A stretch of DNA of 64,000 bases from Eubacteriales bacterium (lineage in GTDB: Bacteria; Bacillota; Clostridia; Oscillospirales; CAG-272): the NCBI GenBank assembly GCA_045657105.1, contig JAZOSN010000059.1, positions 196 to 64,195 on the forward strand. The letters are read 5' to 3'. Both the position numbers and the translations under genes were made by a program. Every line of letters begins with the position of its first letter. Position 1 is the first letter of the stretch. The notes beneath the pieces are model-generated. The model saw nothing but the letters and a program-made list of their open reading frames with translations, did no database searches and had not been told where the DNA came from. Of the stretch, positions 2,166 through 27,087 are shown piece by piece.

Positions 2166-2166
2166 A

Positions 2167-3399: not shown

Positions 3400-3404
3400 C
3401 GCCG

Positions 3405-4481: not shown

Positions 4482-4496
4482 TTTCTGCCGCCTCCT

Positions 4497-8102: not shown

Positions 8103-8118
8103 ATTTATATCCTCCTAT

Positions 8119-9510
8119 TTATGTACCTGATAATTCGGCAAAGGTGAGCGTTACGCTTCCGCTTTCTCTGTCAACGTCCACCGTTATCTTCGCTTCATCT
8201 CCGTCTATCTCGCAGTCGATAGAGGAAATATCGAGCTGTCCGTTGTAGCCCGTTCCGAAGAGAAGTCCTACGACGTACTCCTTTTGAGGGAAGCATTCCT
8301 CGCCGACGACTATCTTACCCGATATTGTAACGTCGTCAAGGATCATATCGGGCGAAGCTTTTCCTGCAAGAAGACCAAACGATGCGCCCGCTATACGCGA
8401 TCCTGCTTTAAGCGTGTAGGTTATATTTTCAAACTCAATATTTTTAAATTCCGCACCACTTTCGAGTACAGCGAAAAGCCCGCCTTCCTTGCTCGAAATG
8501 TTGCCCTGAATTACCGAAACGTTCGATATTTTATACTTGTTTCCGTCTGCCGAGTAAAATCCGCCCTTGAAGCTTCCGCCGGAGAATGCGCTCGGCCATA
8601 CCTCGCCCTTAAAATCGAGGTCTGCACTGATAAGATAGTGTCCGTCGAGATCGGCTATCTTATAGAGCTGATTTGCATTTGAGATCTTGTACCAGTCACC
8701 GTCAAGCCAAGTGGTGTAGAGCTTTATAGTCTGAGTGAGAGTAGTGCCGTTTTCATAGTCAACGTCACCTTTCAGGTTCGCGGGAGCTATCTCGGTCATC
8801 TGCTCGTCGAGATAGACCTTGTCCAGTGTTTTTCCCTCGATCTCGGGGAAACGCTTCATATCGAGCTTGCCCGTCTTTTCGTTCCACTCGGGAAGAACGA
8901 GCTCAATTGCCGAAACGCTTTCGAGCTTTTCGAAGTGTCCGTCTGCGCCGGGCGCGTAAATTTCGTAATTAACGTATGGGATCCACGCCGCGTAAAGCGT
9001 CATAACGCTTTCCTCGGAGGAATATTCTCTGCTCGGATCGACCTTCAAAAGATCGTTTTCGAAGTCCCAGAGTCCTGAATAAACGTATCCCTGCTCTCTG
9101 CCCGACTGTGAGGTGGGAATTCCGAACTCGTCGAGAGCGTTTCCGTTTTCGTCAACGCGTGCCTCGCGTCTTGAATACCAACCCGCGAAGAAATATCCGT
9201 TTTTCGATATTCCGAACGCCTTGTCCTCACGGCTCGGATTATCGGGGGCAATAAGAGGAGTTACTCTGTTGCCGTCTGCGTCCTGCTTCATACTGCCGAT
9301 GTTAAAGACGTCTATAACATAAACGTCCTCCGGACTGTTTGCGAACGAGCCGCCGTTTGCGTCATATCTGACGCTTACCGTATATCCGTCCTTATCGAGC
9401 GTTTTATACGGAGTTTTCCACTGCGCGCAGGCTGTAAAACAGCCTGCCGCAGCAAGGATCAAAGCAAGTGCGAAAACCCACTTTATCCTTATGATCATCT
9501 TATTTTTCAT
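8119..9510 (-). CDS. Lipoprotein with a Listeria-Bacteroides-repeat-like (Flg_new) segment and a GLUG-motif-like C-terminal domain
   Basis: Start taken at ATG 9510 (MKNKMIIRIKWVFALALILAAAGC, lipobox AAGC). It overlaps the protease stop by 11 nt. KNGYFFAGWYSR resembles the Flg_new repeat. GGLFAVLESGAEFKNIEF and SFGLLAGKAS resemble GLUG motifs. Domain names are by eye only. Confidence 0.6.
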   Translation of the reverse strand: MKNKMIIRIKWVFALALILAAAGCFTACAQWKTPYKTLDKDGYTVSVRYDANGGSFANSPEDVYVIDVFNIGSMKQDADGNRVTPLIAPDNPSREDKAFGISKNGYFFAGWYSRREARVDENGNALDEFGIPTSQSGREQGYVYSGLWDFENDLLKVDPSREYSSEESVMTLYAAWIPYVNYEIYAPGADGHFEKLESVSAIELVLPEWNEKTGKLDMKRFPEIEGKTLDKVYLDEQMTEIAPANLKGDVDYENGTTLTQTIKLYTTWLDGDWYKISNANQLYKIADLDGHYLISADLDFKGEVWPSAFSGGSFKGGFYSADGNKYKISNVSVIQGNISSKEGGLFAVLESGAEFKNIEFENITYTLKAGSRIAGASFGLLAGKASPDMILDDVTISGKIVVGEECFPQKEYVVGLLFGTGYNGQLDISSIDCEIDGDEAKITVDVDRESGSVTLTFAELSGT

Positions 9511-12500
9511 CGTCGTCTGCTCCTTTTTGAGCCTCGGAATTCTCACCGTTTTCGCCTTCGGTGCTCTCTTCCGAGCTTTCCTGCTTCTCAGGTGCAAGAT
9601 CTTCCTTGCTTTCTGCAATTGCAGGAGCGTTATCTTTTTTCTTTGTACCAAAGTAAAGCAGTGCAAATACTACTGCCGCCGCTGTCGCGAGTGCAAGAAG
9701 CACGCCGAGAACTGTGTAGATCACAGTTTCAGTCGAGATCTTATTTTCGGACGGGAGCGTAGGAGTGGGAAGATCTCCGCCTTCGACAGGAGGCTGATTT
9801 CCGCCCTGATTTGCGAGGTATTCAAGGTCGCTTATTCTCTTCTCTGCCTGAATGAGCTTCGTGTTATCAACGAGAGCCTGCTGTGCGAGAGTTGCGATCT
9901 TATCGTAAGCCTCTCTTGCCGCGATAACGAGCGCCTTATCCGAGAGAGCAACCTTTTCGGGAAGCTTGTTTATAGCCGCGATAGCCGCGATCGTAATATC
10001 GTCGGGTGCCGCCGCGCCTTCAAGCGTATTTCCGAAATACTGACCGTAAATAAACGTTGTGTAATACGTACCGTTGACAGGTCTGAGCATAACGACCTTA
10101 TCTTCGATATGTCCGATATAATCAACGAAGTTTGCTCCGTAGTAAACGTTGGTTGCATTATCGGTTGCGTTCCACATAAAGAAGTCAACGATTTCAAGTC
10201 CGGGATATTCGATGAGGTTTCCGTCGATATCACTGAACTGATATATACCGGTTGCAGGGAGATTCTGTCCGGACTGGAAGTAGATAGCGTCGTATTCCTC
10301 TTCGAGTATCGGTGCCTTGTACGAGGTGAATACCACGAGCGAGAGGTCATCGCACTCAAAGAACGCCTTATGTCCGATCGCGCTAAGCTCCTTGGGAAGC
10401 TCTACGCGGGTAATATCAGTGCCTGCAAACGCCATAGCGCTTATTCTTACCGTGTTATCTGCTACCTTAACAGTCTTACTATCTCCCGCATAGGAAACGA
10501 GTTCAAGACCGTTTGGTACTACTCTGTAAATAATTCCGTCTATTATCTTGATATTTTTGCTTATGTCGTAGGTATAAACGGTCTTTTCGTAATCCTTGCC
10601 GTTAAAGCTTTCCTTCTCGGTCGAGGAGAATATCGGAAGTCTGCACATCGCAAAGGGATTATCGCCCATAGATTCAAGGTTTTCTCCGAGAGTTACCTCG
10701 AAATCGGTCATTTTCTCTTTGATGAATGCAAGCTCGCCGATATACTTTGCGCCCGAAAGATCTGCCTTCGTTATGTCGGTATAAGCGAAGCTGTAATCGC
10801 CGACGTAGGTGACCTTATCGAGATTTACAAGCTCGCCAAGGACTGTGCAGTAGGAGAATGCACCCTCTGCGATCTCGATACTCTCTGCATTTTCCGCAAA
10901 GATTACCTTTCCAAGCTTTTCACTGTAAACAAATGCATACTCGCCGATCTTTTCTGCGCCCGAAAGGTCGATTTCGGTGAGTGCGGAGTTTGCAAAAGCG
11001 TTATCTCCGATCTCTTTAACTTTTCCGAGGTTGATCTCTTCGAGTTTAAGGCAGTTATCAAATGCGAGCGAGGAAATAGAGGTGACTTTATCACCGAGCT
11101 TTACAGAAACAAGCTCGTGGCAGTATTCGAATGCGCCCTCACCGATAAATTCAACCGAGGAAAGGTCGATATTTGCGAGATCGGTAGCAAAGAATCTGTA
11201 AACGTAGCCGTTTTCGTCGTAAAGCGGATCGGTAAACGAGCTATCTACGAAATCGTAGAGAACGTCGCCCGAGAATGCGCGGTCGCCTATGTACTTAACC
11301 TTGGAAAGGTCGATGTTTTTGAGGTTTGCCGCATTATAGAATGCCTCATCTCCGATGATCGCACCCTCACCGAGAGTAACGCTTTCGAGCTCGGCAGCGC
11401 CCATAAATGCGCCGTTTCCGAGAGTTACGTTATCTCCGATCGTGAGCGAGTGGAGAGCCGAGGTGTAAACGTAGTAGTAAACGAGCTTGCCGCTTTCCTT
11501 GTCGCGGTAGCTTTCGGATTTGTAGTTGGTTTCTCTGTCAAGTCTGAACGCGTAGTCGCCGAGGATAACGTTATCTCCGATAACTACCGAGATAATATCC
11601 TGACACTCGTAGAACGCGCCCTCGCCAACGGTAACACCGTCGGGAATAACGACGTGAAGAAGCTCAGATCCCGCAAACGCGTACTTTCCGATATGCGCGA
11701 TCTTCTCAAACGAGGGTGCCTCGGTTATCTGTACGTTGAAATAGGAGTATTCGCCTATCTTTTCGAGAGTTCCGAGAGTTACGTTTGTAAGACGCTGACA
11801 GTCTGCAAACGCGTAGTTACCTACCGAGGTAACGCCCGGAAGGATTATCGAGGTAAGGTTCTTGTTGCCCGAGAAGGCTCCGTTTGCAACCGAGGTGACG
11901 TTCGGGAGATCGGGAGCGAACACTCCGGAGATACCCGTTGCCACGAAAATTATCTCATTTCCTTCCTTATTAAGTATATAGGAGCTTCCTGCCTGATGAT
12001 AAAGAGTGGTATTACCCTCTGCCACAGTGATCTCGGTAAGCGCGGTATCGCGGAATGCATATTCACCGATTACCGCAACGTCCTTTCCGAAGGTTACGCT
12101 TCTCAGCGAGGAGCAACCGTGGAACGCTCCGGTCGGAATAACCGCCGCGTTGATCGATACAGATTTGAGCGAGGAGCAGTTTGCAAATGCGAATGCTCCG
12201 AGCTTGACCTTATCTGCCTTTACTGTGAGAGTTTCAAGCGACTTACAACCGGAGAATGCATACATACCGACCGACTGTGCCGCCTCGGAGATCACAACTC
12301 CTTCAAGCTTTGCATTGTTTGCAAATGCATAGTGTGTAAGAACTATCGCAGAATCGAGCGAGATCGTTCCTTCAAGTGCACAGTTTGCAAATGCATTCTG
12401 GTTGATGAACTTGACGTTCTCTATACCCTCGACGACTTGGAGTGACCTACAACCGTAGAACGCTCCGAGGTCTATCGTTTCGATGGTCGAAGGAAGAACG

Positions 12501-15500
12501 ACCTTTTTAAGTGCGGTGAGATTTGCGAAAGCATACGAGCCGATGGTCTTGACTCCCTCGGGAATTATGACCTCTTCAACCGTGTTTTCACCGATAAACC
12601 ACATCTTGGTAGCGTCCGGCTCCTCCTCGGTTATATCGGCGGGATCCTTCGGGATATATTCGAAGTTCGAGAATGCGAACTGTCCGATCTCGGTAAGTGC
12701 GAGATCCTTGGGAATGTCAACGCGTCCGCCAAGACCGAAGTAGTGAGTCAGCGAAGGACCTGTGGTTATGTAAGGATCCTTGATCTCAATGCTTATCGTC
12801 TTGGAGTAATAGGTGCTCTTGCCGTCCATCATAACGCGGGCGGTGACCGAAGCAAAACCTTCGGCAACTGCCGTGATCTTTCCGCTTTGATCTACCTTAA
12901 CGAGATTTTCGTTACTCGATTCAAAGACAACCTCGGTCGCATCGGGGAAATAAGCGTCGAGCTTATATCTTATTGTTACCGCCTCGGACGGGAACATCGA
13001 AAGCGAGTAGGAGTTCTGCGACGGGAATTTCATTTCATTTCCCGTTTCACCAATATCTCTGTCCTCGGAGGCCACGAAATAATATGCTTTTTCCGTACGG
13101 TATCCCGTAAGATAGAAGTTATCGGTAACAGGCTTATCGTAGCGTCTGTATCCGTCCTCGTTTTCACCGAGAACCTTGACGGTCATTCGTGCTATCTTAT
13201 TCGTCGTCTTATCCTGTGCGCTTATAAGAGCAACGCCGGACTTAACTGCAACTATCTTGTTGTTAACAACGCGAACTACATTGTTATTGGAAGAAGTGTA
13301 TTCGAGAAGCTCGGGCCACTCGGTTCCGGGATAGGTCTTGGGAGAAAGAGTATAAACCTCGTTGGGACTGAGAGTAAGCGCATACTGTCCTTCCTTGCTT
13401 ACCTCTTCCTCAAAGTAGAAGTCAACGAAATCATCGGGAAGCGAGATCTCGTAGGTCGCAAGGTTGAGCGCGTAGTCGTAAACCGCCACCGTGAAGCAGT
13501 TTCTCGTGGTAGACTTCGTTCTTATATCGTCAACGTAGTCTGTAAGTTCGTAAATAACCTCGCTCGTAGAGTTGACCGACGAATATATCGGAGTCATATA
13601 CTGGTCGAAGTTGTAGAGCATCGGCTCGTCCTGATCGTCATCGACGTATCCGGGCTGCATAGCCATAGAATAGTGGTTATCAAAGATCGAAAGACGAGCG
13701 TAAAGTCTGGTCTTTTTAGCCGACTTATCATACTCTGTATAGTAATCAACGTCGGTGATTGCGGGAGCCTCGAAGTCGGTAACGAGCGGGAACTCAAATA
13801 CGTTGGAGTCGTTGGTTTCTGCTCCGCCGTCGCCGTAGTCGAGGTAAGCTTTAAGCGTTACCGTGTATTCGGTATTGTTTTTGAGGTTTGCATCTATCGC
13901 ACTGAACTCTATCTTGACGTTTGCGGGATAGATCGATCCGCCGTCGCCGTAGGATTTACGGACGTCCTCCTCGACCTTGGTGAACACAACCTCTCCGGTC
14001 GAATCCTCGACTATCGATATTTCAATAGTCGCGGCGTTTCTGAGAAGTCCTGCCCATACGAATCTGAGCGAGTTTATCGTATCTGTCTGATTTGAGAGTG
14101 CTATGTACTTTCTGTCTGCCGCGATAAGTCTGGACGAGGGATTCTGAATGAAGTAGTAGGATCCGAGGTAGCTTACGTAGTCGTCAGAAATTCCGCCGAT
14201 AGGACGTGTCGCGTATGCATCGGGAAGAGTTTTGTCTTCAAGGTCGATCGAGTCGTCGATCTCGTCCTTGTTGGTTTCAAAATAATCAAGGTCGAATATG
14301 GGAGCCTCGGTCCAGTCGCCGTAGAAAGCAAGGTAAGGAACGCTAAGGTCGATCTCGGTACCCGAAAGAGCGTCCAGAACGACGAATCCTTCGACGTACA
14401 TACCGTTTTCGAACGAGTCGTCCATATATTTCTTATCCGCGTCACTGAGAGTGATGGTTACGGTAACGTCCGCAACCTCTCCTGCACCGACGGTCACCTT
14501 GCTTTGGTCGAGAGTTCCGTTCTTAACCGAAGTAACAACGACCTTTGCTCCGTCAAGGATATATCCCTGCTCGGTAACGGTTGTTTCACCGTCGTTTGTC
14601 TTGGTTTCACTGACGCCCTCGGTCATAACGTATGCCGAAACGTCGTATGTAAGAGCACTGCTTCCAAAGTTGTTTATCGAGAATTTAAGGGTGTAAACAC
14701 CGGTCTTGCTCGGATCGTCGCCAAGCTCGATCTTCGACTTATCCATTACAGAGCCGTCAATACGATCGTAGGTTACGATATAAGCAGGAGTTGCGGCAGA
14801 GCTCGTAAGGTTTGCAAGACCTGCGCCCTGCTTTCTTACCGAGTAAGGAAGTCCGTTTACGTTATATATAATGTCCGCAGTGGACATCATAAGTCTGTTT
14901 ACAAGAGCCGTGACCTCAACGGGATTGTTTCTGAGCTCAGGGAATGCGCTAAGCACGTACTGGCGCATAAGAGCGGTAACGCCCGACATATTGGGAGTTG
15001 CCATCGAGGTTCCCGAAAGACGGTCGTACGACTGACCGGGAACTGCCGAGAGTATCGAGCCGCCGTGTGCGGTGATCTCGGGCTTGAGTTCGAGGTCGGG
15101 AGTAGGTCCCCACGAGGAGAAGTCGGACATGAAGGGACCCGAGGCCTGCGAGCGACTGATCTTGATAACACCGCTCTTAGATGCCGCGAGCAGCTCACCG
15201 TCGTCCTGACGGATAGAGCAGACAGGGATCGTCGTGTCACCGACATTCATCTTGATTTCACCCGAAACGTTATTGTAAATAATAACGCCTGCCGCACCCT
15301 TTTGCTGAGCGACGTTTGCTTTTTCCTCAAAGGTGGTAGATCCGCGTCGAACGAGCGCGATCTTGCCCTTTACGTCTATTCCGGTATAGTCGGCAGAGCG
15401 TCCTGCGCCCGGAATAGTAACGTATTCGATTTCAAGCGAGTCCTTACCGTCTGCAAATATCTCGTCAAAGAAGTTCTTTTCTTCCTGAACTCTGTCGGTA

Positions 15501-16837
15501 GACTCGGTGAAGTAGATTATAGTGTTGTTGTAGAGAAGGTAGGGAGTCTTAACGCCGCTTATCGAAGCTACCGAAAGAGCACCCTTGTAGGTCGAAGGAG
15601 AGCCTACCGTTGCACTGTCGGGATTGGAGGTAAGCGGGAGGTTTCCGTTTTTCTCCGATCCGTAGGTCGAGTTGAAGCTATTGGACGCCGCAACCACCAT
15701 ACTGATACCTGCCGCACGAATTCTGTCGTAAACGCCCGAGATCTGTTCCTTGTCCATCTCACGGCTGAATCCGCAGCTCGTACCTATCGACATATTGATA
15801 ACGTCAACGCCGAGAACGACACAGTCTTCAAGTGCACTGAGTATCCAAGAGGTTCTTGCAGACGATTCCGTGTCCGAGAATATCTTCATTTCAACGAGCT
15901 GTGCTCCGGGAGCAACGCCCGTGATGGTATCGTCGTGTCCTGCAATAACTCCCGAAACGTGAGTTCCGTGGTCGTTCGCCGAAGGAGTCATCGGGTAAAC
16001 GTCCGAATCGTAGTCTGCATAGTCAAATCCGAAAGGAACCTTGTCACTGATATAAACGTCGGAAGCGGTAAGTCCGCTCTGTTGCTTTGATGCAACAGTA
16101 TCACCGATAAGCGCGGCAACCTCTTCGAAGGTGAGTCCGAGCTTGTTTCTGTCGGTTTTGAAGTTAGAGTCAAGGAAAGCAGAGTGATAGTAGTCAAGTC
16201 CTGTATCGAGAACCGCGATTACCATTCCCTCTCCGTTGTATGCGAAATCAGAGCTATCGAATATACCGGTTTCGTATACGTCGACCTTGTTTTCAACGAG
16301 CTTGGTTTCGGCAGTCTTGTAAACGTCGCCCACGATAACGTTGGCGCGGTTTCCGAAGGTCGTGCAGACCTTGGCGAAATCTCCTGCCTTAATAGTTATT
16401 TCAAAGCCGCTTATAACGGTCGAGTAGTCGGCACCGATGCCGTAACTCAGCTTGCCCTCGTCGAGCATAGCGAGAAGCTCTGCCTTTTCCGAGAGAATAT
16501 CTGCTTTAAGCTTTGCCGCATCTTCGGTGAGAGAAAATTCGGATATAGACATATCCGTATCCTTCTTCTCGTAAGCGTCAAGCAGTGACGTCTTGTCAAG
16601 CTGTACTATAAGTGATATTTCATCGGTATCTCTGACTCCCGCGGGGAGCTGATAGATTACCGACGTATTAAAATAGTCCTTGAAATTTGTGTTTATGTCC
16701 CCGCCCAGAAGCTGTATCAGCGATTTTTGTGCAGATACACTGAGAGGAGCCACAAGCGTTGAGATGAGAAGAGCGAGTACCGTAAGGAGCACGAGTGCGC
16801 CCGATACTACTCTTGTCCAGAGTGTTTTGCGTGCCAT
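9500..16837 (-). CDS. Giant cell-envelope subtilisin (peptidase S8) with PA insert, Ig-like domains, BspA-type leucine-rich-repeat array and C-terminal TM anchor (2445 aa)
   Basis: Signal peptide. Catalytic triad motifs VIAVLDTGLD (Asp211), NDHGTHVSG (His293), LSGTSMATPNMSG (Ser611). PA-like insert around aa 430-560 (KGKIALVRRGSTTFEEKANVAQQKGAAGVIIYNN). About 30 repeats of xIGxxAFxxCxxLxxVxL over aa 1380-2170 (nt about 10330-12700). TM helix at aa 2370-2396 followed by an acidic tail. Confidence 0.9.
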   Translation of the reverse strand: MARKTLWTRVVSGALVLLTVLALLISTLVAPLSVSAQKSLIQLLGGDINTNFKDYFNTSVIYQLPAGVRDTDEISLIVQLDKTSLLDAYEKKDTDMSISEFSLTEDAAKLKADILSEKAELLAMLDEGKLSYGIGADYSTVISGFEITIKAGDFAKVCTTFGNRANVIVGDVYKTAETKLVENKVDVYETGIFDSSDFAYNGEGMVIAVLDTGLDYYHSAFLDSNFKTDRNKLGLTFEEVAALIGDTVASKQQSGLTASDVYISDKVPFGFDYADYDSDVYPMTPSANDHGTHVSGVIAGHDDTITGVAPGAQLVEMKIFSDTESSARTSWILSALEDCVVLGVDVINMSIGTSCGFSREMDKEQISGVYDRIRAAGISMVVAASNSFNSTYGSEKNGNLPLTSNPDSATVGSPSTYKGALSVASISGVKTPYLLYNNTIIYFTESTDRVQEEKNFFDEIFADGKDSLEIEYVTIPGAGRSADYTGIDVKGKIALVRRGSTTFEEKANVAQQKGAAGVIIYNNVSGEIKMNVGDTTIPVCSIRQDDGELLAASKSGVIKISRSQASGPFMSDFSSWGPTPDLELKPEITAHGGSILSAVPGQSYDRLSGTSMATPNMSGVTALMRQYVLSAFPELRNNPVEVTALVNRLMMSTADIIYNVNGLPYSVRKQGAGLANLTSSAATPAYIVTYDRIDGSVMDKSKIELGDDPSKTGVYTLKFSINNFGSSALTYDVSAYVMTEGVSETKTNDGETTVTEQGYILDGAKVVVTSVKNGTLDQSKVTVGAGEVADVTVTITLSDADKKYMDDSFENGMYVEGFVVLDALSGTEIDLSVPYLAFYGDWTEAPIFDLDYFETNKDEIDDSIDLEDKTLPDAYATRPIGGISDDYVSYLGSYYFIQNPSSRLIAADRKYIALSNQTDTINSLRFVWAGLLRNAATIEISIVEDSTGEVVFTKVEEDVRKSYGDGGSIYPANVKIEFSAIDANLKNNTEYTVTLKAYLDYGDGGAETNDSNVFEFPLVTDFEAPAITDVDYYTEYDKSAKKTRLYARLSIFDNHYSMAMQPGYVDDDQDEPMLYNFDQYMTPIYSSVNSTSEVIYELTDYVDDIRTKSTTRNCFTVAVYDYALNLATYEISLPDDFVDFYFEEEVSKEGQYALTLSPNEVYTLSPKTYPGTEWPELLEYTSSNNNVVRVVNNKIVAVKSGVALISAQDKTTNKIARMTVKVLGENEDGYRRYDKPVTDNFYLTGYRTEKAYYFVASEDRDIGETGNEMKFPSQNSYSLSMFPSEAVTIRYKLDAYFPDATEVVFESSNENLVKVDQSGKITAVAEGFASVTARVMMDGKSTYYSKTISIEIKDPYITTGPSLTHYFGLGGRVDIPKDLALTEIGQFAFSNFEYIPKDPADITEEEPDATKMWFIGENTVEEVIIPEGVKTIGSYAFANLTALKKVVLPSTIETIDLGAFYGCRSLQVVEGIENVKFINQNAFANCALEGTISLDSAIVLTHYAFANNAKLEGVVISEAAQSVGMYAFSGCKSLETLTVKADKVKLGAFAFANCSSLKSVSINAAVIPTGAFHGCSSLRSVTFGKDVAVIGEYAFRDTALTEITVAEGNTTLYHQAGSSYILNKEGNEIIFVATGISGVFAPDLPNVTSVANGAFSGNKNLTSIILPGVTSVGNYAFADCQRLTNVTLGTLEKIGEYSYFNVQITEAPSFEKIAHIGKYAFAGSELLHVVIPDGVTVGEGAFYECQDIISVVIGDNVILGDYAFRLDRETNYKSESYRDKESGKLVYYYVYTSALHSLTIGDNVTLGNGAFMGAAELESVTLGEGAIIGDEAFYNAANLKNIDLSKVKYIGDRAFSGDVLYDFVDSSFTDPLYDENGYVYRFFATDLANIDLSSVEFIGEGAFEYCHELVSVKLGDKVTSISSLAFDNCLKLEEINLGKVKEIGDNAFANSALTEIDLSGAEKIGEYAFVYSEKLGKVIFAENAESIEIAEGAFSYCTVLGELVNLDKVTYVGDYSFAYTDITKADLSGAKYIGELAFIKEKMTDFEVTLGENLESMGDNPFAMCRLPIFSSTEKESFNGKDYEKTVYTYDISKNIKIIDGIIYRVVPNGLELVSYAGDSKTVKVADNTVRISAMAFAGTDITRVELPKELSAIGHKAFFECDDLSLVVFTSYKAPILEEEYDAIYFQSGQNLPATGIYQFSDIDGNLIEYPGLEIVDFFMWNATDNATNVYYGANFVDYIGHIEDKVVMLRPVNGTYYTTFIYGQYFGNTLEGAAAPDDITIAAIAAINKLPEKVALSDKALVIAAREAYDKIATLAQQALVDNTKLIQAEKRISDLEYLANQGGNQPPVEGGDLPTPTLPSENKISTETVIYTVLGVLLALATAAAVVFALLYFGTKKKDNAPAIAESKEDLAPEKQESSEESTEGENGENSEAQKGADDDEK

Positions 16838-17127: not shown

Positions 17128-20004
17128 ATGAAGAAAACCACAACGGTACGCGCTATACTCGCGTTACTGCTGCTTGCTTCGATGCTCTTCTCGATGCTCT
17201 GCGCGTGCACGGGCGGCTCGGACAACAATGATGATAACGGATCGGGTGATCCCTCGACAAATCCGGACACACCTTCTCAGGGAGAAGGTCCCGACGATCC
17301 CGACGGCGGAGAGCCGACTGTCAAGGTCGAATACTCGATAAAGGTTCTCTCGGCAGGCGGACTTGCTCTTGATAAAGTAAAGGTTTACGTTTATGCAGAC
17401 GATACGCTTGACGACCTTGAAGGCTTTGCCGAAACAAACGCGGACGGCGTAGCTACGATGAAGCTTCCGAAAAAGTCGGCGTACAGCGCGGTGCTCACCG
17501 GCGTTCCCGAAGGATATGACGTTGCAAAATCTTACGCTATTACCGGCACGTTCACCTCTATCACGCTCACCTCTGCGGTAATAAAGAGCGAGAGCCTCGC
17601 AGGAGTCAGCTACGAGCTCGGCTCGGTAATGCACGATTTCAGCGTTATCACAAGAGATGGCGAAAACGTCCGTCTTTCCGAGCTTCTCAAAGAAAAGAAG
17701 GCAGTAATGCTCAATTTCTGGTTCACGACTTGTACGTGGTGCTTAAAAGAATTCCCCTATATGGCATCGGCATACGAGAAGTTCAAGGACGATATTGAAA
17801 TACTCGCTATGAACCACACCGACACCGAGGACGACATCGACATGTTTGAGGCTATGTACGGACTCGATCCGCTTCCTTTCCCCAAGGTTAGGGACTACAC
17901 TCAACTGAAAAGCGCATTCAGTATAGGCAACTACCCCACATCTGTAATAATCGACCGTTACGGCGTAATTTGCCTTATCGAGGTCGGCGGCGTCCCCTCT
18001 GCGGAGCCCTTTGAAAAAGCCTTTGAATATTTCTCGGCAGACAACTACACTCAGAAGCTCTTTGCGAACATTTCCGAGCTCACTCCGATAGAAAAACCTA
18101 CCGTTGATATGCCCTCCTCCGATGAGATCGGCGGAGTATTCAACAAGGGCGAGATCGAGGTTACCTACCGTCCCGAAACCGAAGAGGGCGCGTCCGAATC
18201 CGCTTGGCCCTTCGTGATCGGCGAAAAGAACGGCGTTTCCTGCATTATGAGCTCAAACGCCGGCAAATCCTCGACTTTTGCTATTATGTATGCAGACGTT
18301 ACTCTCAAAAAGGGACAGGCGCTTGCATTTGACTACATTTCTTCGTCCGAGCGCGGCGCAGACGCTCTCGTCATTATCGTTGACGGCGAGGACATTTATC
18401 AGATCTCGGGCGTCGGTGAAAACTGGTCTACCTGTTATCCCTACGTTGCAACCGAGGACGGTACTTACGAGGTAGCCTTCGTTTATATGAAGGACTCGAC
18501 CACAAACGAAGGAGATGACAGAGTATATCTCAAAGATCTCCGCGTAGTTTCCGAGGCAGACGTTGACTCTCCTACTTATATTCCGAGAAACGCGGCAACC
18601 AATCCCGATGAATTCGGCTTCTCATACCAGGATTACGTAACTCCCGTTTTCAACGAAAAAGACGGCTACTACCACGTAAACGACAAAAACGGTCCCCTGC
18701 TTATTGCAAACCTTATGGGTTACACGAATTTCAGCGACTCCACAATATACAATCTTGTCTGCGATCCTACCAGTCCGGCTTACCAGTACTACGATGAAAT
18801 TCTTCCTTATTTCAGCTATGCATCAAATTCCGAGTTTAACGGCTTCTGTACCGTAAACGCCGAGCTTCGTGATATACTCGAAAGCATCGCAAACGTCGCA
18901 GGGCTCGAGCCTGAGAACCCAAATCAGTGGCTTAAGATGTGCGTTTACTACGATGCATACGGCACAAACGGAGCTCAGCTCGTTGACCCAATACGCGGTC
19001 TTGCTCCCTTCTCGGCATTCGAGGCAAAGGAAGGCAAGGACAACAGTGTAACCTACAACCGTGTTATTATGCCTCGCGGTCTGCTCTACAAATTCGTTCC
19101 TACGAGATCGGGCGCATACCGCATTACCTCTGACAGTGATTACGAGGTAAACGCTTGGATATTCCTTGAAGAGAATATCGCCGAGAACAAACCTTTCTAC
19201 ACCTATAACGGCGGCGAAAGAATGTATAACGATAGCATCAACTGCTCTATGGTAATGTATATGGAAGCGGGCAAAGCGTACTACATCGACATCGCTTACT
19301 ACGACGTATATCAGGAAGGCACCTTCACATTCGAGATTAAATATCTCGCTCCTACGACCGAGATATTCACCATCGCATCTCCAGGATTCTTCACCTACTA
19401 CGAAAATGAAAATACCGAGTCTGTAAACGAGATCATCGCAGGCGGTATCGATGTCGTTCTCGGAAGCGACGGATACTACCACGAAAAGCGTGCAGACGGA
19501 TCTCTCGGATCTGTCGTTTATGCAGATTTCGTCGGATCTACCGGAATTTTCAACAAATCCCTTACTCAGATGATAGCTCTCGGATCGTTCAATTTCGCGA
19601 TGACCGAGGGAGATCAGTACATTCTCACCTATATCGCACAGTTCTACAAGGATCTCGGCATTGATGCAGACGCTCGCCCCGCAGATCACAGAGAAGCTCT
19701 TATCACAAAGTTCAAGGAGCTTTGGGGTGACAGCTACACAGAGTACGCTTCCATCTATGAGATCGAGGACGTTATCGCAGGAATCTATCACGGCGAGGGC
19801 GAGGATCTCACCGCGCTTGCACAGAAATATGCAAATGATGCAAGCAAGGTAAATTCTCCCGCAGAGCGCGTTGGTTGCGTTGCAGTAAACGAGGAGCTCG
19901 CAGAACTCCTTCAAATCCTTATGGACAAATACACCTTCGAGGGTGTTGATACCTCTTGGAGAAAGCTCTGCTACTACTACCAGTATTTTGGACCTCAGGC
20001 GTAA
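17128..20004 (+). CDS. Multidomain lipoprotein with embedded TlpA/ResA-like thioredoxin-fold domain (958 aa)
   Basis: Signal peptide plus lipobox (FSMLCAC). Ig/CarboxypepD_reg-like domain (YSIKVLSAGGLALDKVKVYVYADD). Thioredoxin-like motif NFWFTTCTWCLKEFP (CTWC at 17731-17742). Jelly-roll-like domain. Two copies of a DGYYH...W-x-K-x-C-x-Y-Y module. Confidence 0.8.
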   Translation: MKKTTTVRAILALLLLASMLFSMLCACTGGSDNNDDNGSGDPSTNPDTPSQGEGPDDPDGGEPTVKVEYSIKVLSAGGLALDKVKVYVYADDTLDDLEGFAETNADGVATMKLPKKSAYSAVLTGVPEGYDVAKSYAITGTFTSITLTSAVIKSESLAGVSYELGSVMHDFSVITRDGENVRLSELLKEKKAVMLNFWFTTCTWCLKEFPYMASAYEKFKDDIEILAMNHTDTEDDIDMFEAMYGLDPLPFPKVRDYTQLKSAFSIGNYPTSVIIDRYGVICLIEVGGVPSAEPFEKAFEYFSADNYTQKLFANISELTPIEKPTVDMPSSDEIGGVFNKGEIEVTYRPETEEGASESAWPFVIGEKNGVSCIMSSNAGKSSTFAIMYADVTLKKGQALAFDYISSSERGADALVIIVDGEDIYQISGVGENWSTCYPYVATEDGTYEVAFVYMKDSTTNEGDDRVYLKDLRVVSEADVDSPTYIPRNAATNPDEFGFSYQDYVTPVFNEKDGYYHVNDKNGPLLIANLMGYTNFSDSTIYNLVCDPTSPAYQYYDEILPYFSYASNSEFNGFCTVNAELRDILESIANVAGLEPENPNQWLKMCVYYDAYGTNGAQLVDPIRGLAPFSAFEAKEGKDNSVTYNRVIMPRGLLYKFVPTRSGAYRITSDSDYEVNAWIFLEENIAENKPFYTYNGGERMYNDSINCSMVMYMEAGKAYYIDIAYYDVYQEGTFTFEIKYLAPTTEIFTIASPGFFTYYENENTESVNEIIAGGIDVVLGSDGYYHEKRADGSLGSVVYADFVGSTGIFNKSLTQMIALGSFNFAMTEGDQYILTYIAQFYKDLGIDADARPADHREALITKFKELWGDSYTEYASIYEIEDVIAGIYHGEGEDLTALAQKYANDASKVNSPAERVGCVAVNEELAELLQILMDKYTFEGVDTSWRKLCYYYQYFGPQA

Positions 20005-20027: not shown

Positions 20028-21323
20028 ATGAAAAACAAAACATTTAATAGGATCCTGAGCCTTGTGCTCTCTATCGCGTTCGTCCTGTCACTCTGCGTAG
20101 CATTTACCGCGTGCAAGAGCGAGGACGGCAGCTCGGACTCCGATAAAAACGACGACACGCCCAAGGGTACACTCGATTACAAGGTAAATCTCGTCAACTA
20201 TGCAGGCGAGGCGGTCAGCGACGTAGTAGTACATGTTCTAAAAAACGGAGAACAGGTCAAAATGAACGTCGCAGGTCCTACCGGATCGGTAAAATTCTCG
20301 CTTGATGCAGGAGATTACACCGTTTCTCTCGAATCGGTTGACAGTGACAAGACGTTCAGCTACGACGAGAGCTCCTGCGTTCTCAGCGCAGAGGCTCCCG
20401 AGATCACGGTAGTCCTTTATAACGGACTCGAAGAATCGGGAAACATTACGTTCACCGTGAACGATGCCGACGTCGAGTACAAGACTCACAGAGCGTCGGT
20501 CGGCGGAAGCTTTATAAAGATTCCTGCCAAAAATTCAGCGTATTTCATCTTCACTCCGGCAAAGCAAGGGCACTATAAAATATCCTCGTCCGATCCTTCG
20601 GTAAAGGTTGAATACCGCGGTGCTCCCACGTTTCCCCTTCCCTACAACGTAGCCGATATGGAAAGTGACGGATCGTTCTTCCTTAACGTCAAGGACTCCA
20701 ACATAGGAACGAACGGAACGGGCACGTCACAGTATATTATCGGTATGACGAACGAGTCGGACAGTGATATTTCCTCTGTTTTGAAGATCGAGCGCGAGGG
20801 GGATTTCGTAAGAGATATAATCGACGAGCCCTGGCAGGATATTATGCCGAAGGGCAAGCTTGAAAAGTACGTTCCCGAAACTCCTCTTACCGAAAAAATG
20901 CTCACAAGCCTTGATATCACAAGCACAGGTCTTAATGTCGTATTCAACGAAAACGACGGATATTATCACCTCGGAAGCGCAGACGGCCCTCTCGTGCTCG
21001 TCCGCATTTCGAGCGCAAGTGATCACATCGCTTCCTTTACCGAAATGTGCGAAACCGACAGACTCGGCGCGTACATTTACGACGAGGACGGCAAGTTTGC
21101 AAGAAAAGAAAGCTTCAACGAGCTTATTGCAAAATATGCCGAGATATGCGACGAGGTGACAGGCGTATGTCCTCTCGACAAGGATCTCGAATATATGATA
21201 AAGACAGTCGGCGGATACAAGGGCTGGTGGAATTACGAAGCAGGAACGCAGATATTTACCGATATTATCGTTCCCGTACAGAACGCTTGGCTCTTTGCCT
21301 GCTGCTACGTTTCGGCAAGCTAA
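20028..21323 (+). CDS. Lipoprotein paralogous to the C-terminal modules of the preceding gene (431 aa)
   Basis: Lipobox VAFTAC. Ig-like domain YKVNLVNYAGEAVSDVVVHVLKNGEQV. PPC-like segment AYFIFTPAKQGHYKISSSD. DGYYHLGSADGPLVLV module ending NAWLFACCYV. Only 23 nt downstream of the previous gene, with a GAGGA RBS. Confidence 0.7.
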   Translation: MKNKTFNRILSLVLSIAFVLSLCVAFTACKSEDGSSDSDKNDDTPKGTLDYKVNLVNYAGEAVSDVVVHVLKNGEQVKMNVAGPTGSVKFSLDAGDYTVSLESVDSDKTFSYDESSCVLSAEAPEITVVLYNGLEESGNITFTVNDADVEYKTHRASVGGSFIKIPAKNSAYFIFTPAKQGHYKISSSDPSVKVEYRGAPTFPLPYNVADMESDGSFFLNVKDSNIGTNGTGTSQYIIGMTNESDSDISSVLKIEREGDFVRDIIDEPWQDIMPKGKLEKYVPETPLTEKMLTSLDITSTGLNVVFNENDGYYHLGSADGPLVLVRISSASDHIASFTEMCETDRLGAYIYDEDGKFARKESFNELIAKYAEICDEVTGVCPLDKDLEYMIKTVGGYKGWWNYEAGTQIFTDIIVPVQNAWLFACCYVSAS

Positions 21324-22276: not shown

Positions 22277-22670
22277 AAAAATCCGTGCATAGCGTGATAC
22301 TCTTAACGGAGTATCACGCAGTCAAATCCGTCTTCGCCGGGTGAAATCCACCGTTGGTGGATGAAATCGCTTTCGCGATGAAATCCTGCTTCGCAGGGTT
22401 ATAACAGAAGGATTTGATTTCATCCAAGGCAACGCCTTGGATTTCATCTGAGTAAAGCGAAGATTTCATCGTGGCATAGCCACGATTTCATTTAACCAAC
22501 AGAAAAAGAGAGGACATTTCGGCTACGAACCGATTTGTTCTCTCTTTCTGCTTGTTATATGGGTTTGGGCTTAGCCCATTTGCGTTTGACTAGTCAAATG
22601 CGAAGCTTGCTTTTTTATCAAAGCGAAAATTCTCCGCTAAGGACATCACGCTATCTTGAACGGATTTTTT
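22277..22670. repeat. About 390-bp intergenic array of short perfect hairpins bounded by a 22-26 nt inverted repeat
   Basis: Boundary IR: AAAAATCCGTgcATAGCGTGAT (22277-22298) versus the revcomp of ATCACGCTATcttgaACGGATTTTTT (22645-22670). Internal hairpins are at 22292-22319, 22346-22362, 22366-22379, 22385-22397, 22422-22442, 22468-22486 and 22500-22550, plus a 14-bp perfect palindrome TTTGACTAGTCAAA at 22585-22598. Linkers are TGAAATC in the left half and GATTTCA in the right half. Confidence 0.6.
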
Positions 22671-22672
22671 AT

Positions 22673-24211
22673 TTAGTTCCCAAGCGCCTTTTCAATAGCC
22701 TCTACAAGCTCTGCCTTTTCCATCTTGGCTTCCGAGCGCGCTACGATAATACCGTCGGCGTCAACGACCACCGTCATAGGATACTGTCCCTTTCCGCCCA
22801 TAGCGAAATAGTAGCTCTCGCCCGCGTTGTTATGTCCGAACTTCATCGTGTAATTTTCAAAGCCGTGTTCGAAAATACAGAAGGTTATATCGTCCTCGCT
22901 GTCGTCTGCCGAGCATATTGCTATCATATCAATAGACACGCCCTTGTTTGTATACTCCTTATATACCTCTTCGAAATGAGGAAGCTCTTCAAGGCAGGGT
23001 TGACAGGTCGTATACCAGAAGTTTATGACCGTTATCTTTCCCTTGTTCTGCGATACGTTAAAGCTTCCCTCTCCGCCGTGAAGAATCTTTATATCCTCAC
23101 TTACGCAGATGTTTCCGATAGCGTAGCCGACTGTTGGCTCTCCGGTATCACCGCTTGGCGGCGGTGTATTTGTGACGGGTGCTTTATCAATAAAGTTGTA
23201 GTACACAAGGCTTCCGATAAGGAGCGCCGCCGCAAGCACTACCGATACGATCTTTACGGCAGTTACGCGCTTTTTGCGCTTTGCCTCGATTCTTTCCTTT
23301 TCCTCTTCGCTTGCATTTTCAGGGATCTCATTTGGCGGCAGGATTATCCTTGCGCCCTTCCACTGTATAGCGTTTGTCGGGCAGACGTCGATGCATTCAC
23401 CGCAGTTTATACACTCGTGATCGCCGACGTGACGAATATCCATCTTGCATTTACTGATGCAAAGTCCGCAGTCGATACATTTGGGCTTTTCAAGCTTTAT
23501 TCCGATAAGCGCGATCTTATTGAAAAGTCCGTAAAGCGCGCCGAGCGGACAGAAGAAACGGCAGAAGAAGCGGTAAATGAACACCGATCCTACGATAAAT
23601 ACGACCAAAAGCAGGAACTTCCAAGTAAAGAGCGGTCCGAGCAGTGAGAGCAGTCCGCTGTTTGCCTGATTCGAAAGAAGCCCGACTCCGCCTTCAAGCG
23701 TTCCCGCAGGGCAGATGTATTTACAAAAAGCGGGGATCTTGTCGCCTCTTGCGCTATATATGAGCGGTATGATTATCGCAAACACCGCAAGTATCACGTA
23801 TTTAAGATAAGAAAGAACTCTCGTTACTCTGTTTTTTTGGAGCTTCGGAGTCTTTATTTTATGTAAAAGATCCTGAATAAGTCCAAAAGGACAAAGGAAG
23901 CCGCATATCCAGCGTCCAAACAGCAGTCCGTAAAGCATAATGATTCCGAGCATATAATACGGAGCCGTCTTGTTCGCGTCGGCAAGAGCGTTTTGTAGCG
24001 CTCCGAGCGGACACGCCGCCGATGCTCCCGGGCAGGAATAGCAGTTGAGTCCGGGCGCGCACATGTTTTTTACCTTGCCGAGATAAATATATCCGTTGCC
24101 AAAGCCTTTCAGGTTGGCGTTAAAGAGCAGTGCGGCGTATAGCTGGATAAGCCTTCGCTTAAACGGCAGTTTGCTCTTTTTTGTTTTTTTGTTTTCTTTA
24201 TTTAAATTCAT
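22673..24211 (-). CDS. NapH/MauN-type membrane polyferredoxin fused through an extra TM helix to a C-terminal TlpA-like thioredoxin domain
   Basis: Four CxxCP-type motifs (CYSCPGASAACPLG, GRWICGFLCPFG, CKYICPAG, YRFFCRFFCPLG) set among TM helices. Two ferredoxin motifs (CIDCGLCISKC, CINCGECIDVCP). A Lys/Arg/Glu-rich segment, then TM VKIVSVVLAAALLIGSLVYYNF, then NFWYTTCQPCLEELP (CQPC at 22994-23005). Start taken at ATG 24211, 1 nt after the upstream stop. The ORF track uses TTG 24220. Confidence 0.8.
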   Translation of the reverse strand: MNLNKENKKTKKSKLPFKRRLIQLYAALLFNANLKGFGNGYIYLGKVKNMCAPGLNCYSCPGASAACPLGALQNALADANKTAPYYMLGIIMLYGLLFGRWICGFLCPFGLIQDLLHKIKTPKLQKNRVTRVLSYLKYVILAVFAIIIPLIYSARGDKIPAFCKYICPAGTLEGGVGLLSNQANSGLLSLLGPLFTWKFLLLVVFIVGSVFIYRFFCRFFCPLGALYGLFNKIALIGIKLEKPKCIDCGLCISKCKMDIRHVGDHECINCGECIDVCPTNAIQWKGARIILPPNEIPENASEEEKERIEAKRKKRVTAVKIVSVVLAAALLIGSLVYYNFIDKAPVTNTPPPSGDTGEPTVGYAIGNICVSEDIKILHGGEGSFNVSQNKGKITVINFWYTTCQPCLEELPHFEEVYKEYTNKGVSIDMIAICSADDSEDDITFCIFEHGFENYTMKFGHNNAGESYYFAMGGKGQYPMTVVVDADGIIVARSEAKMEKAELVEAIEKALGN

Positions 24212-24212
24212 A

Positions 24213-24992
24213 TCAGCCAAGTCCTATACATTCGGTACAAATTTTAATAGCCTTATCAAGCACGTCGCTCATTCCGCCGTTGAAAATTCCAAGCACTATA
24301 AATGCGACCGCTACGGCAAAAACAAGAGCCCTGGCGACTGCAAGAGAATAATTTTTCTTTCCCGTTGTCACCGCGATCGGCTTTATTTCCGCGCCGTTTT
24401 CTGCGGTAGCGGCGAGAGATTTTTTAAGCTCGGCTATTTCTTTGTTATAACTGTATTTTGAGTAAAACGAGAAAACCACGCCGACAGAAAAAGCAAATAC
24501 CGCACACGGCAGAAGGACCCACATAAGAGATATGATACTGCGGTTTATTTCGTCGGTAAAGCTCGACTCTTTAAAGATATACATAAAGACAGGAGCCGAC
24601 GATACCGCACAGAGTGAAAGAGCAATCGTTCTGAACATATCTCTGTCCGATGCGATCTTATCCGCTTCTTCACTGACTCCGCCTTTGTCCGCGAGCCTTG
24701 ACCGCAGTTTTGCGGCTACGCTTTTCGGATCGGGCGCAGGGCGAAGCTTCTTTTCTTCGAGCGGAAAAACAGCAGATATAACTACCGAGCCAACGAGTGC
24801 GGCAAGACAGACGACCGTCGGAACTATTATTTTTTTGAACTGTGCCGAAATACTCTCGGGCGTGAACGGGTGATCTCCGCTTTTATAGATCGTAACACAG
24901 GACACGATAAGGCAAATTCCGAGCAGGACAATAAGCACCGAAAGCGCTATGCCGTATATCAGATAAAGCCTTTCTTTATTTTTTTGTGACAT
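24213..24992 (-). CDS. Polytopic membrane protein ending in a CxxC tail (…KICTECIGLG)
   Basis: 259 aa with several hydrophobic helices. The C-terminal CTEC is at 24228-24239, immediately before the stop. Translationally coupled to the polyferredoxin gene. Confidence 0.65.
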   Translation of the reverse strand: MSQKNKERLYLIYGIALSVLIVLLGICLIVSCVTIYKSGDHPFTPESISAQFKKIIVPTVVCLAALVGSVVISAVFPLEEKKLRPAPDPKSVAAKLRSRLADKGGVSEEADKIASDRDMFRTIALSLCAVSSAPVFMYIFKESSFTDEINRSIISLMWVLLPCAVFAFSVGVVFSFYSKYSYNKEIAELKKSLAATAENGAEIKPIAVTTGKKNYSLAVARALVFAVAVAFIVLGIFNGGMSDVLDKAIKICTECIGLG

Positions 24993-25062
24993 AATTATCT
25001 CCGTTTCAAAGCATATATAGTAATTTTATCATACAATACACTTAAAGTCAAGTTTTTTATAT

Positions 25063-25093
25063 CAAAACGAAAGGTCGGCTTCCCGACCTTTTC
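25063..25093 (-). terminator. Rho-independent terminator after the 556-aa gene
   Basis: GAAAGGTCGG-cttc-CCGACCTTTTC, with a T-run on the minus strand (revcomp of CAAAACGA). Confidence 0.55.
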
Positions 25094-26928: not shown

Positions 26929-27087
26929 ATGCGTATAAAGACTCTCGATACCAGAAATCTCTGCGAAAGCGCAAAGAACGGCGGTTGCGGCGAATGCCAG
27001 ACCTCCTGCCAGTCCGCTTGCAAGACCAGCTGCGGTATCGCTAACCAGCAGTGTGAAAACACCAAGAAGGAAAACGAAAACAAGTAA
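26929..27087 (+). CDS. scfA: Six-cysteine ranthipeptide precursor SCIFF (52 aa); absent from the ORF track because it is under 60 aa
   Basis: My translation is MRIKTLDTRNLCESAKNGGCGECQTSCQSACKTSCGIANQQCENTKKENENK. The core GGCGECQTSCQSACKTSC is the SCIFF family signature. GGAGG RBS 8 nt upstream. The cognate radical-SAM gene follows. Confidence 0.9.
   Translation: MRIKTLDTRNLCESAKNGGCGECQTSCQSACKTSCGIANQQCENTKKENENK

Follow-up and report, generated by a model that had tools for sequence, protein, structure and literature searches.

We analyzed a 64,000-nucleotide (nt) stretch of contig JAZOSN010000059.1 from a Eubacteriales bacterium (hereafter, the window), and focused on two adjacent genes arranged head to tail on its minus strand. 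One is a fusion gene, whose product joins a NapH-like membrane module and a ferredoxin-type iron-sulfur (Fe-S) domain to a thioredoxin domain; the other, directly upstream of it, is a partner gene for a membrane protein with a CxxC motif in its C-terminal tail. Both open reading frames (ORFs) had been reported in a preliminary description of this DNA, and both were found at its coordinates on the minus strand, with all the motifs that it quoted in their places. The features of the pair and of the region upstream are listed below; residue numbers of the fusion protein count from its TTG start, and lengths are in amino acids (aa).

22673..24220, minus strand: fusion gene, 515 aa from TTG or 512 aa from the ATG at 24211 (ORF list and profiles).
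23513..24160, minus strand: NapH-like four-helix module, residues 21-236 (Fer4_5 matched twice; alignment with E. coli NapH; helices of the AlphaFold2 (AF2) model).
24011..24061, minus strand: cysteine (Cys) cluster CAPGLNCYSCPGASAAC of predicted outward loop 1 (C54, C60, C63, C70), invariant in 86/86 homologues and absent in E. coli NapH.
23888..23905, minus strand: CX3CP motif CGFLCP (C106, C110) on the predicted cytoplasmic face, aligned with the first CX3CP of NapH, invariant.
23708..23725, minus strand: motif CKYICP (C166, C170) of predicted outward loop 3, kept in 85/86 and 86/86 homologues; NapH has WEWINP there.
23546..23563, minus strand: CX3CP motif CRFFCP (C220, C224) on the predicted cytoplasmic face, aligned with the second CX3CP of NapH, invariant.
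23378..23479, minus strand: two ferredoxin-type 4Fe-4S motifs, C248/251/254/258 and C270/273/276/280-P (Pfam Fer4, Fer4_7 and Fer4_18), all eight Cys invariant.
23189..23308, minus strand: basic segment and helix 5, predicted to take the chain back out of the cell (hydropathy 2.45; AF2 helix 305-344).
22676..23092, minus strand: TlpA/ResA-type thioredoxin domain (Redoxin, AhpC-TSA), with the active-site CQPC at 22994-23005.
24213..24992, minus strand: partner gene, 259-aa membrane protein with five predicted helices and a CD1871A-type CxxC tail (ORF list).
24216..24326, minus strand: CD1871A domain, i.e. the last helix and the tail LVFAVAVAFIVLGIFNGGMSDVLDKAIKICTECIGLG (NF040920), with CTEC at 24228-24239.
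25023-25051, minus strand: promoter-like site TTGACT-17-TG-TAAAAT with an extended -10 element, 3' of the hairpin (consensus match only).
25070-25091, minus strand: terminator-like hairpin at the end of the upstream 556-aa gene (consensus match only).

The junction of the two genes reads GGA CTT GGC TGA T ATG, with the ATG of the fusion gene 1 nt past the stop of the partner gene, and the alternative TTG start gives an 8-nt overlap between the two genes; the sequence thus agrees with the junction that had been noted before, as it does with the reported KICTECIGLG-stop at the C-terminus of the partner. Since a terminator-like hairpin and then a promoter-like site lie upstream of the pair, these two elements (25023..25091) look like the boundary of a two-gene unit.

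In the fusion protein, a NapH-like four-helix module is followed by two 4Fe-4S ferredoxin motifs, a further helix and a TlpA/ResA-type thioredoxin domain. The Cys motifs of the membrane module are C60-x2-C63-P with C70-P, C106-x3-C110-P, C166-x3-C170-P and C220-x3-C224-P, and hence the four CxxCP-type motifs of the preliminary description resolve into one Cx2CP and three Cx3CP. The other parts that it listed, namely, the two ferredoxin motifs, a basic segment (EEEKERIEAKRKKR, residues 305-318, followed by the helix at 321-344), an extra helix and the thioredoxin domain (with NFWYTTCQPCLEELP at residues 400-414), were all recovered by Pfam/NCBIfam profiles and hydropathy. In Pfam, the fusion protein matches Fer4_5 (65.7 bits, in two stretches), Fer4, Redoxin (PF08534, 44.4 bits against a gathering score of 26.6) and AhpC-TSA (PF00578, 42.4 against 26), all above the curated cut-offs. 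Scores against the full-length family profiles fall below their cut-offs, i.e. 85.9 bits against 213.05 for NapH/MauN (TIGR02163), 62.8 against 234 for NapH (NF007013) and 54.6 against 170 for ResA (NF002854), and the StoA/TlpA/DsbE-type profiles are also far under theirs (36.8 against 210, 29.6 against 230 and 26.3 against 123). On these scores, the matches to the NapH/MauN and ResA profiles are to be read as family-level likeness, not as orthology. Over its first 290 residues, the fusion protein can be aligned with E. coli NapH at 27% identity, with both CX3CP motifs and the eight cluster Cys in register, and the thioredoxin domain matches the PDB entry of ResA (4nmu) by sequence with an E-value of 4e-11. 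We rejected an assignment of this domain as a ResA, StoA or CcmG orthologue, as the scores are far below the cut-offs and a context of surface proteins and a peptidase (see below) is unsupportive of a role in cytochrome c or the spore cortex. We also rejected a peroxiredoxin, as the AhpC-TSA match reflects a common fold and the active site is a thioredoxin-type CxxC.

The full-length AF2 model of the fusion protein has a mean predicted local distance difference test (pLDDT) score of 76, with values above 90 in the thioredoxin domain, 50-86 in the membrane module and below 50 in the Cys cluster of outward loop 1; the low confidence of this loop would fit the absence of a cofactor or of a partner from the model. 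When the full-length model was searched against the folds in PDB, matches were found solely to the thioredoxin domain, with target-normalized TM-scores of 0.84-0.91 to ResA, and the C-terminal domain of DipZ was among them. A model of the membrane module by itself (mean pLDDT 61) returned no PDB match at an E-value of 0.001, and neither the sequence nor the fold searches of PDB returned a solved structure that resembles this module.

The partner protein carries its recognizable domain at the very end. Its residues 223-259 (the last 37, …KAIKICTECIGLG-stop) match NF040920, a 38-residue profile entitled 'CD1871A family CXXC motif-containing protein'; the score of 44.9 bits exceeds the cut-off of 32, and the match covers profile positions 2-38 of 38. 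The protein departs from the small single-helix form of this family, having 259 aa and five helices instead of the 44-60 aa of the peptides, and the long-form partners in the clade of the fusion are likewise 250-280 aa long, with CD1871A at the C-terminal end and four extra helices. A database search returned 339 homologues of the partner, all of them unnamed. The tail is by far their best conserved part, with a mean top-residue frequency of 0.91 against 0.30-0.68 elsewhere, and C-x-x-C-(I/V)-G-x-G stands at the extreme C-terminus in 118 of the best 120 partner homologues. We considered that the tail might be conserved merely via the overlapping start or ribosome-binding site of the next gene. 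This is unlikely as the whole cause, as the tail is equally conserved where the spacing is 10-24 nt (loci L086 and L090, see below). The searchable literature holds no mention of CD1871A, and no function is attached to NF040920. At the other end of the partner, residues 11-55 (window 24830-24962, minus strand), which span helix 1 and an outward loop (…YKSGDHPFTPESISAQF…) and extend into helix 2, are clearly better conserved than the middle, Y13, G14, I15, G39, P42, F43, T44 and F52 being near-invariant; this N-terminal extension is not present in the 44-60-aa CD1871A peptides.

The predicted topology of the fusion protein is as follows. Lys and Arg (K+R) residues amount to 17-25 per 100 aa in the segments predicted as cytoplasmic, against 4.5-7.4 in those predicted as outside (86 homologues); exactly one hydrophobic helix, placed after the basic stretch, separates the Fe-S ferredoxin domain from the thioredoxin domain; and the unfused thioredoxin partners described below bear a signal peptide or a lipobox. 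Because of this charge bias, the single helix after the Fe-S domain and the export signals of the unfused partners, the thioredoxin domain is predicted to lie outside and the Fe-S domain in the cytoplasm, in agreement with the orientation proposed in the preliminary description. The charge bias also independently puts the C106/C110 and C220/C224 motifs and the ferredoxin domain on the cytoplasmic side. For the partner, charge alternation across 114 homologues and hydropathy point to a protein with its N-terminus inside, five helices and its C-terminus outside; accordingly, with N-in and five helices, the tail is predicted to face out. Among the single-helix CD1871A peptides, the N-termini are rich in K and the tails are acidic. 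A CD1871A tail fused to a NapH-like protein was never found, which fits the opposite topology of the two termini. The predicted outward face would thus bring together the thioredoxin CxxC, the tail CxxC and six Cys (C54, C60, C63, C70, C166 and C170) in two loops. The outward orientation of the tail, the six extra outward Cys beside it, and the larger conserved surface-protein neighborhood that contains the pair are additions to the preliminary description.

Conservation was assessed in an alignment of 86 homologues with 56-88% identity. Cys residues C54, C60, C63, C70, C106, C110, C170, C220 and C224, the eight cluster Cys and the active-site C406/C409 are invariant in 86/86, and C166 is kept in 85/86. 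The active site reads WCGPC in 49/86, the TCQPC of the window being a minority variant. All of the best 120 homologues of the fusion protein have Fer4_5, Fer4 and Redoxin and, where named, are called '4Fe-4S binding protein'. A profile-free scan of 1.84 billion cluster representatives gave 471 matches at an E-value below 1e-30, some of which contain two or three thioredoxin stretches and some of which are stand-alone proteins of ~290 aa. With hundreds to thousands of occurrences, the architecture and the gene pair are more than a chance finding. We also inspected 80 genome loci, which come from Clostridia gut metagenome-assembled genomes save one record titled Alloprevotella sp. (L071). In 74 of these 80 loci, an ORF ending in …C-x-x-C-(I/V)G-x-(G/F) lies directly upstream of the fusion gene and is tightly coupled to it; the six exceptions are mostly incomplete fusion ORFs, or loci that start at or near the fusion gene. 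The bins that contain the pair and the fusion are titled Oscillospiraceae, Lachnospiraceae, Christensenellaceae and others. The preliminary description had proposed conservation of both CxxC motifs as a check, and both are conserved, in 86/86 homologues for the thioredoxin domain, and in 74/80 loci and 118 of the best 120 partner homologues for the tail. It had also considered a local assembly or fusion artefact, which we reject, since the fusion is conserved in hundreds of independent assemblies and is widespread in gut Clostridia bins.

Two side observations belong here. A lone C372 (…GNIC…; window 23105-23107, minus strand) at the start of the thioredoxin domain is kept in 83/86 homologues, and an equivalent Cys recurs at the start of each thioredoxin repeat in the multi-domain form P0242. 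The window also encodes a 52-aa SCIFF ranthipeptide precursor with six Cys (26929-27087, plus strand; TIGR03973, 78.9 bits against a cut-off of 50) and a SCIFF radical S-adenosylmethionine (SAM) maturase (27321-28697, plus strand; TIGR03974, 745.6 against 425), a marker pair that fits the Clostridia assignment of the related loci, with no apparent link to the two genes studied here.

The three parts also occur as separate genes, or with a small CD1871A peptide in place of the long partner, in the following loci.

Blautia (L081-83): 189-aa secreted WCGPC thioredoxin, 60-aa CD1871A peptide (68.8 bits) and 298-aa NapH-like protein (8-nt overlap).
L086: thioredoxin lipoprotein, 48-aa CD1871A peptide (51.3 bits) and NapH-like protein.
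L085: 44-aa CD1871A peptide (65.4 bits), NapH-like protein and thioredoxin lipoprotein.
L090: 43-aa CD1871A gene upstream of a distant fusion, P0344 (43% identity in alignment A4).

L085 and L086 are metagenome contigs that have the same three parts as adjacent separate genes. The NapH-like module, the CD1871A tail peptide and the thioredoxin travel together, as fused or as adjacent genes, and CD1871A adjoins a NapH-like 4Fe-4S protein in L081, L085, L086 and L090 as well as in the 74/80 loci. The association of small CXXC-tail proteins with NapH-like proteins in Clostridia, which had been put forward earlier, is therefore real, NF040920 matches being found beside NapH-like genes. Within 4-6 kb, gene calling in the three unfused loci (Blautia, L085 and L086) gave no member of the DsbD family. 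Other partners were seen as well. P0337 and P0361, two stand-alone close relatives of the NapH-like module, are encoded directly after lipoprotein genes with the flavin mononucleotide (FMN)-binding domain FMN_bind (PF04205; L092 2717-3319 and L093 120-740); they keep the outward-loop Cys, and their loci have no room for a CD1871A gene. Hence, the outward partner of the NapH-like module appears to be interchangeable between flavin and thiol carriers, and a small sample of about ten loci suggests that the CD1871A peptide goes with a thiol-based partner.

Some of these relatives have further peculiarities. The thioredoxin lipoprotein gene of L085 (2130-2786, plus strand) has one in-frame TGA at the first active-site Cys (NVWTTT-TGA-PSC), and a hairpin, CCTGCgttGCAGG, starts ~29 nt past this codon; the protein is a candidate selenocysteine (UxxC) form. 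In P0344 (L090 5001-7007), a Pfam DsbD_N match of 23.0 bits, under the cut-off of 25, lies behind the thioredoxin domain, and a PDB sequence search of this region gave no confirmation. It is a weak hint that P0344 would mimic the gamma and alpha domains of DsbD on a NapH-like membrane part. In P0287, the NapH-thioredoxin protein is fused to an immunoglobulin (Ig)-like domain (sub-threshold Big_1) and a second thioredoxin domain, and this Ig-like domain looks like the Ig-like segments of the neighborhood lipoproteins described next.

We clustered all ORFs of the 80 loci and found four families that recur around the pair, namely, a secreted S8 peptidase of about 2450 aa, a lipoprotein of about 960 aa with a ResA-like CxxC domain, and two more lipoproteins, represented in the window by the genes at 9500-16837, 17128-20004, 20028-21323 and 8119-9666, respectively. 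The surface-protein neighborhood of the window includes the following genes.

8119..9666, minus strand: lipoprotein, encoded downstream of the S8 peptidase gene.
9500..16837, minus strand: secreted Peptidase_S8 of 2445 aa with PA, Fn3_5, Big_2 and BspA-type leucine-rich repeats.
17128..20004, plus strand: lipoprotein of 958 aa with a ResA-like thioredoxin domain (WFTTCTWC) and an uncharacterized C-terminal region.
20028..21323, plus strand: lipoprotein of 431 aa, with a 'DGYYH' domain in common with the 958-aa protein.
21515-22273, plus strand: further member of the surface-protein neighborhood.

The lipoproteins of this neighborhood share the uncharacterized 'DGYYH' domain and Ig-like domains. 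Among the 33 loci that extend for at least 9 kb in both directions from the pair, 30 have at least one of the four recurrent families, 21 have a homologue of the S8 peptidase (29 of the 48 loci with at least 9 kb upstream) and 20 have a homologue of the 958-aa thioredoxin lipoprotein, whose CxxC is kept in 21 of 23 cases. The titles of these loci include Faecousia, Roseburia, Agathobacter, Faecalimonas, and unnamed Oscillospiraceae and Lachnospiraceae bins. The usual order is the lipoprotein and the S8 peptidase (transcribed away from the pair), the tail gene, the fusion gene, the 431-aa-family lipoprotein and the thioredoxin lipoprotein (towards the pair), of which the window has a rearranged version. 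Two adjacent genes for oligopeptide/dipeptide-type ATP-binding cassette (ABC) ATPases lie at window 1065-3408 (minus strand), as judged from sequence motifs only; homologues are present in 9-11 related loci, and these genes may tie the region to peptide uptake. Three long ORFs on the plus strand have odd translations rich in K, R and C. The one at 22535-23647 runs antisense to the fusion gene and is almost certainly spurious, and at 3531-5249 and 5532-8147 the real genes are probably on the minus strand.

From the anatomy, conservation and gene linkage of the pair, together with its predicted topology, we infer a function. The two proteins probably, in our cautious judgment, form a membrane complex that is fed by ferredoxin and carries reductant from the cytoplasm to an extracytoplasmic thioredoxin, being DsbD/CcdA-like in its job and unrelated to that family. 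The sequence evidence thereby supports the transmembrane reductant relay that the preliminary description had proposed. Reduced ferredoxin or another cytoplasmic Fe-S donor would load the two 4Fe-4S clusters, and electrons would then pass to the inner CX3CP pair and on to the outward Cys cluster, with the CX3CP-type motifs either forming a thiol-disulfide cascade like that in the membrane domain of DsbD or binding additional Fe-S clusters. As an adaptor, the CxxC in the tail of CD1871A would make the outward site a dithiol donor, and this donor would reduce the CxxC of the tethered thioredoxin. The thioredoxin domain would in turn reduce surface clients, most plausibly the neighboring thioredoxin lipoprotein and proteins around the giant S8 peptidase, so that surface Cys would be kept reduced or disulfides in protein substrates opened. 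WCGPC, the commonest active site among the homologues, is the classic reducing thioredoxin motif and counts for such a relay.

Several points weigh on the other side. The outward direction of electron flow is deduced solely from the type of thioredoxin and the logic of an Fe-S donor. The membrane module is modelled at moderate-to-low confidence and has no relative in PDB, and its Cys geometry is not fixed by the model. Were there Fe-S clusters on the outward side, they would require an assembly route, and none is known for loops inserted by Sec/YidC; in a cascade made only of thiols, one-electron clusters have to be coupled to a two-electron disulfide. Among the divergent relatives, L087 and L094 have a CD1871A-like peptide with no visible thioredoxin neighbor, and L089 has neither. 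Moreover, the correlation of CD1871A versus FMN_bind with the type of partner rests on few loci (about ten).

Three other explanations were weighed, the first of which concerns the source of the electrons. A conventional CcdA/DsbD encoded elsewhere in the genome might reduce the thioredoxin, with the NapH-like protein and CD1871A serving redox sensing, anchoring, or the supply of FMN or another acceptor. That NapH-like relatives serve other partners such as FMN_bind, and that some CD1871A/NapH-like pairs have no thioredoxin nearby, speaks for such a merely structural association. The preliminary description had reported neither CcdA nor DsbD in the window, which appears true (neither protein matches a DsbD family, and no ORF has the size and helix count expected of CcdA), but is uninformative, given how little of a genome 64 kb covers. 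It counts against this explanation that the fusion and the tight adjacency recur independently in distant lineages, that the 20 relay, cluster and active-site Cys are invariant in the 86 homologues (85/86 for C166), that the NapH-like/CD1871A pair of the unfused operons sits where ccdA usually adjoins surface thioredoxin genes, and that no DsbD-family gene is called near these operons over the 4-6 kb covered. We thus consider this explanation unlikely, and would regard the NapH-like module, and not a CcdA elsewhere in the genome, as the presumed electron donor.

Quite unlikely, in our view, is a flow in the reverse direction, in which the outward thioredoxin would oxidize exported proteins and the electrons would be handed inward, by way of the Cys motifs and the Fe-S clusters, to an acceptor in the cytoplasm or the membrane (cf. 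VKOR-thioredoxin and DsbA/DsbB). The layout does recall VKOR-Trx fusions, in which a four-helix module with Cys pairs at its outer face comes together with an extra helix and a thioredoxin on the outside; the neighboring surface proteins have several Cys, and NapH is believed to shuttle electrons between Fe-S proteins and the membrane. However, the thioredoxin domain belongs to the TlpA/ResA group of reductases, its commonest active site is WCGPC and not the CPHC type of oxidases, the transfer of electrons from a dithiol to ferredoxin-type clusters is thermodynamically unfavorable, and exported proteins of strict anaerobes, such as these hosts, seldom form disulfides. About equally unlikely is the binding or reduction of a metal (Fe3+ or Cu2+, as in CcoG) at the outward Cys and the CxxC tail, with the thioredoxin fold serving uptake, or the loading of a surface protein, as a Sco/TlpA-like metallochaperone: eight outward Cys are a plausible metal site, CcoG is a NapH-related cupric reductase, and a connection to iron assimilation has been drawn for NapH-like FMN-linked systems (PMC8238504), but the matches to CcoG (TIGR02745, 28.1 bits) and SCO1/SenC (17 bits) are weak and far under the cut-offs, no metal transporter or cuproenzyme gene recurs across the 80 neighborhoods, and the thioredoxin domain has a CxxC instead of the CxxxC and His of Sco.

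If the outward reductant relay is real, it would be a new class of reductant export that is widespread in gut anaerobes. A bolder and tentative version, which we think may well not hold in full, is that of an Fe-S-based third class of transmembrane disulfide reductase, a 'ferredoxin:extracytoplasmic-thioredoxin reductase' whose NapH-like module would work through CX3CP-type Cys motifs on its inner and outer sides, with the CxxC of CD1871A as a mobile dithiol arm, and which would replace DsbD/CcdA in many gut Clostridia, power the surface thioredoxin/S8-peptidase system and reveal the role of the CX3CP motifs in NapH, NosR and RdhC. An Fe-S-fed route would change the view of surface thiol redox homeostasis in strict gut anaerobes, which are rich in reduced ferredoxin. 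Given the link to the giant S8 peptidase and the thioredoxin lipoprotein, the system may serve to break down extracellular proteins or to protect those of the surface, and the natural thioredoxin fusion with its CxxC subunit would provide a direct handle on the CX3CP motifs of the NapH/NosR/RdhC family.

Among known systems, the closest to the fusion are NapH, NosR and RdhC (PceC; Fer4_5, PF12801), which have in common a four-helix core with two CX3CP motifs on the cytoplasmic face; NapH and NosR continue, like the fusion, into a C-terminal 2x[4Fe-4S] domain. These modules are thought to link electrons of the membrane or cytoplasm to an extracytoplasmic redox partner, which is the same idea as that proposed for the fusion. 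The fusion differs from them in its obligatory CD1871A CxxC-tail partner and in its output, a thioredoxin domain where theirs is NapG, an FMN domain or a reductase; moreover, its six invariant outward-loop Cys are all absent from E. coli NapH. No napG/napA, nos, rdh or mau gene was found among the profile-scanned ORFs of the window or the recurrent neighbor families of the 80 loci. The function of the CX3CP motifs has been unassigned since the early 2000s, with disulfide chemistry considered; for NosR/RdhC, the choice between a relay and cluster ligands leans to disulfide chemistry since NosR has only ~8 Fe (PMC5928378). In the account of Meheust et al. (2021, PMC8238504), NapH-like modules are modular conduits that take electrons across the membrane to an extracytosolic carrier, which is either fused to them or encoded next to them; the partners covered there bind FMN, and thioredoxin-like carriers are treated as DsbD-fed. 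The conduit concept of these flavinylation systems is the same, and close relatives of the fusion adjoin FMN_bind lipoproteins; in contrast, the carrier of the fusion is a CxxC thioredoxin instead of a flavinylated FMN_bind domain, and CD1871A is added. Pfam scans of six window proteins gave no FMN_bind match, PF12801 being present; ApbE was not searched for.

The same job as that proposed here, the export of reductant to an extracytoplasmic TlpA/ResA-type thioredoxin, is done by DsbD, CcdA and DipZ and by the Streptococcus CcdA-Etrx system, and DipZ, a CcdA with a C-terminal TlpA-like domain, shares the logic of a membrane conduit fused to a thioredoxin. However, the membrane part of the fusion has four helices with CX3CP motifs and not the DsbD beta-domain fold, and its donor side is an Fe-S ferredoxin domain, whereas theirs is cytoplasmic thioredoxin. 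The DsbD-family profile (PF02683) has no match in the fusion or the partner, and there is no sequence relationship. To our knowledge, the characterized reductant routes to extracytoplasmic thioredoxin-like proteins all use the DsbD/CcdA family, fed by cytoplasmic thioredoxin, and the architecture reported here was not described in the searchable literature on CD1871A, on NapH-like/PF12801 proteins with thioredoxin, or on DsbD/CcdA-independent routes. The chemistry has a possible precedent in ferredoxin:thioredoxin reductase and HdrB, which couple one-electron 4Fe-4S clusters to the two-electron reduction of a cluster-adjacent disulfide; these enzymes are soluble and have no homology to the fusion, and the likeness is by mechanistic analogy only.

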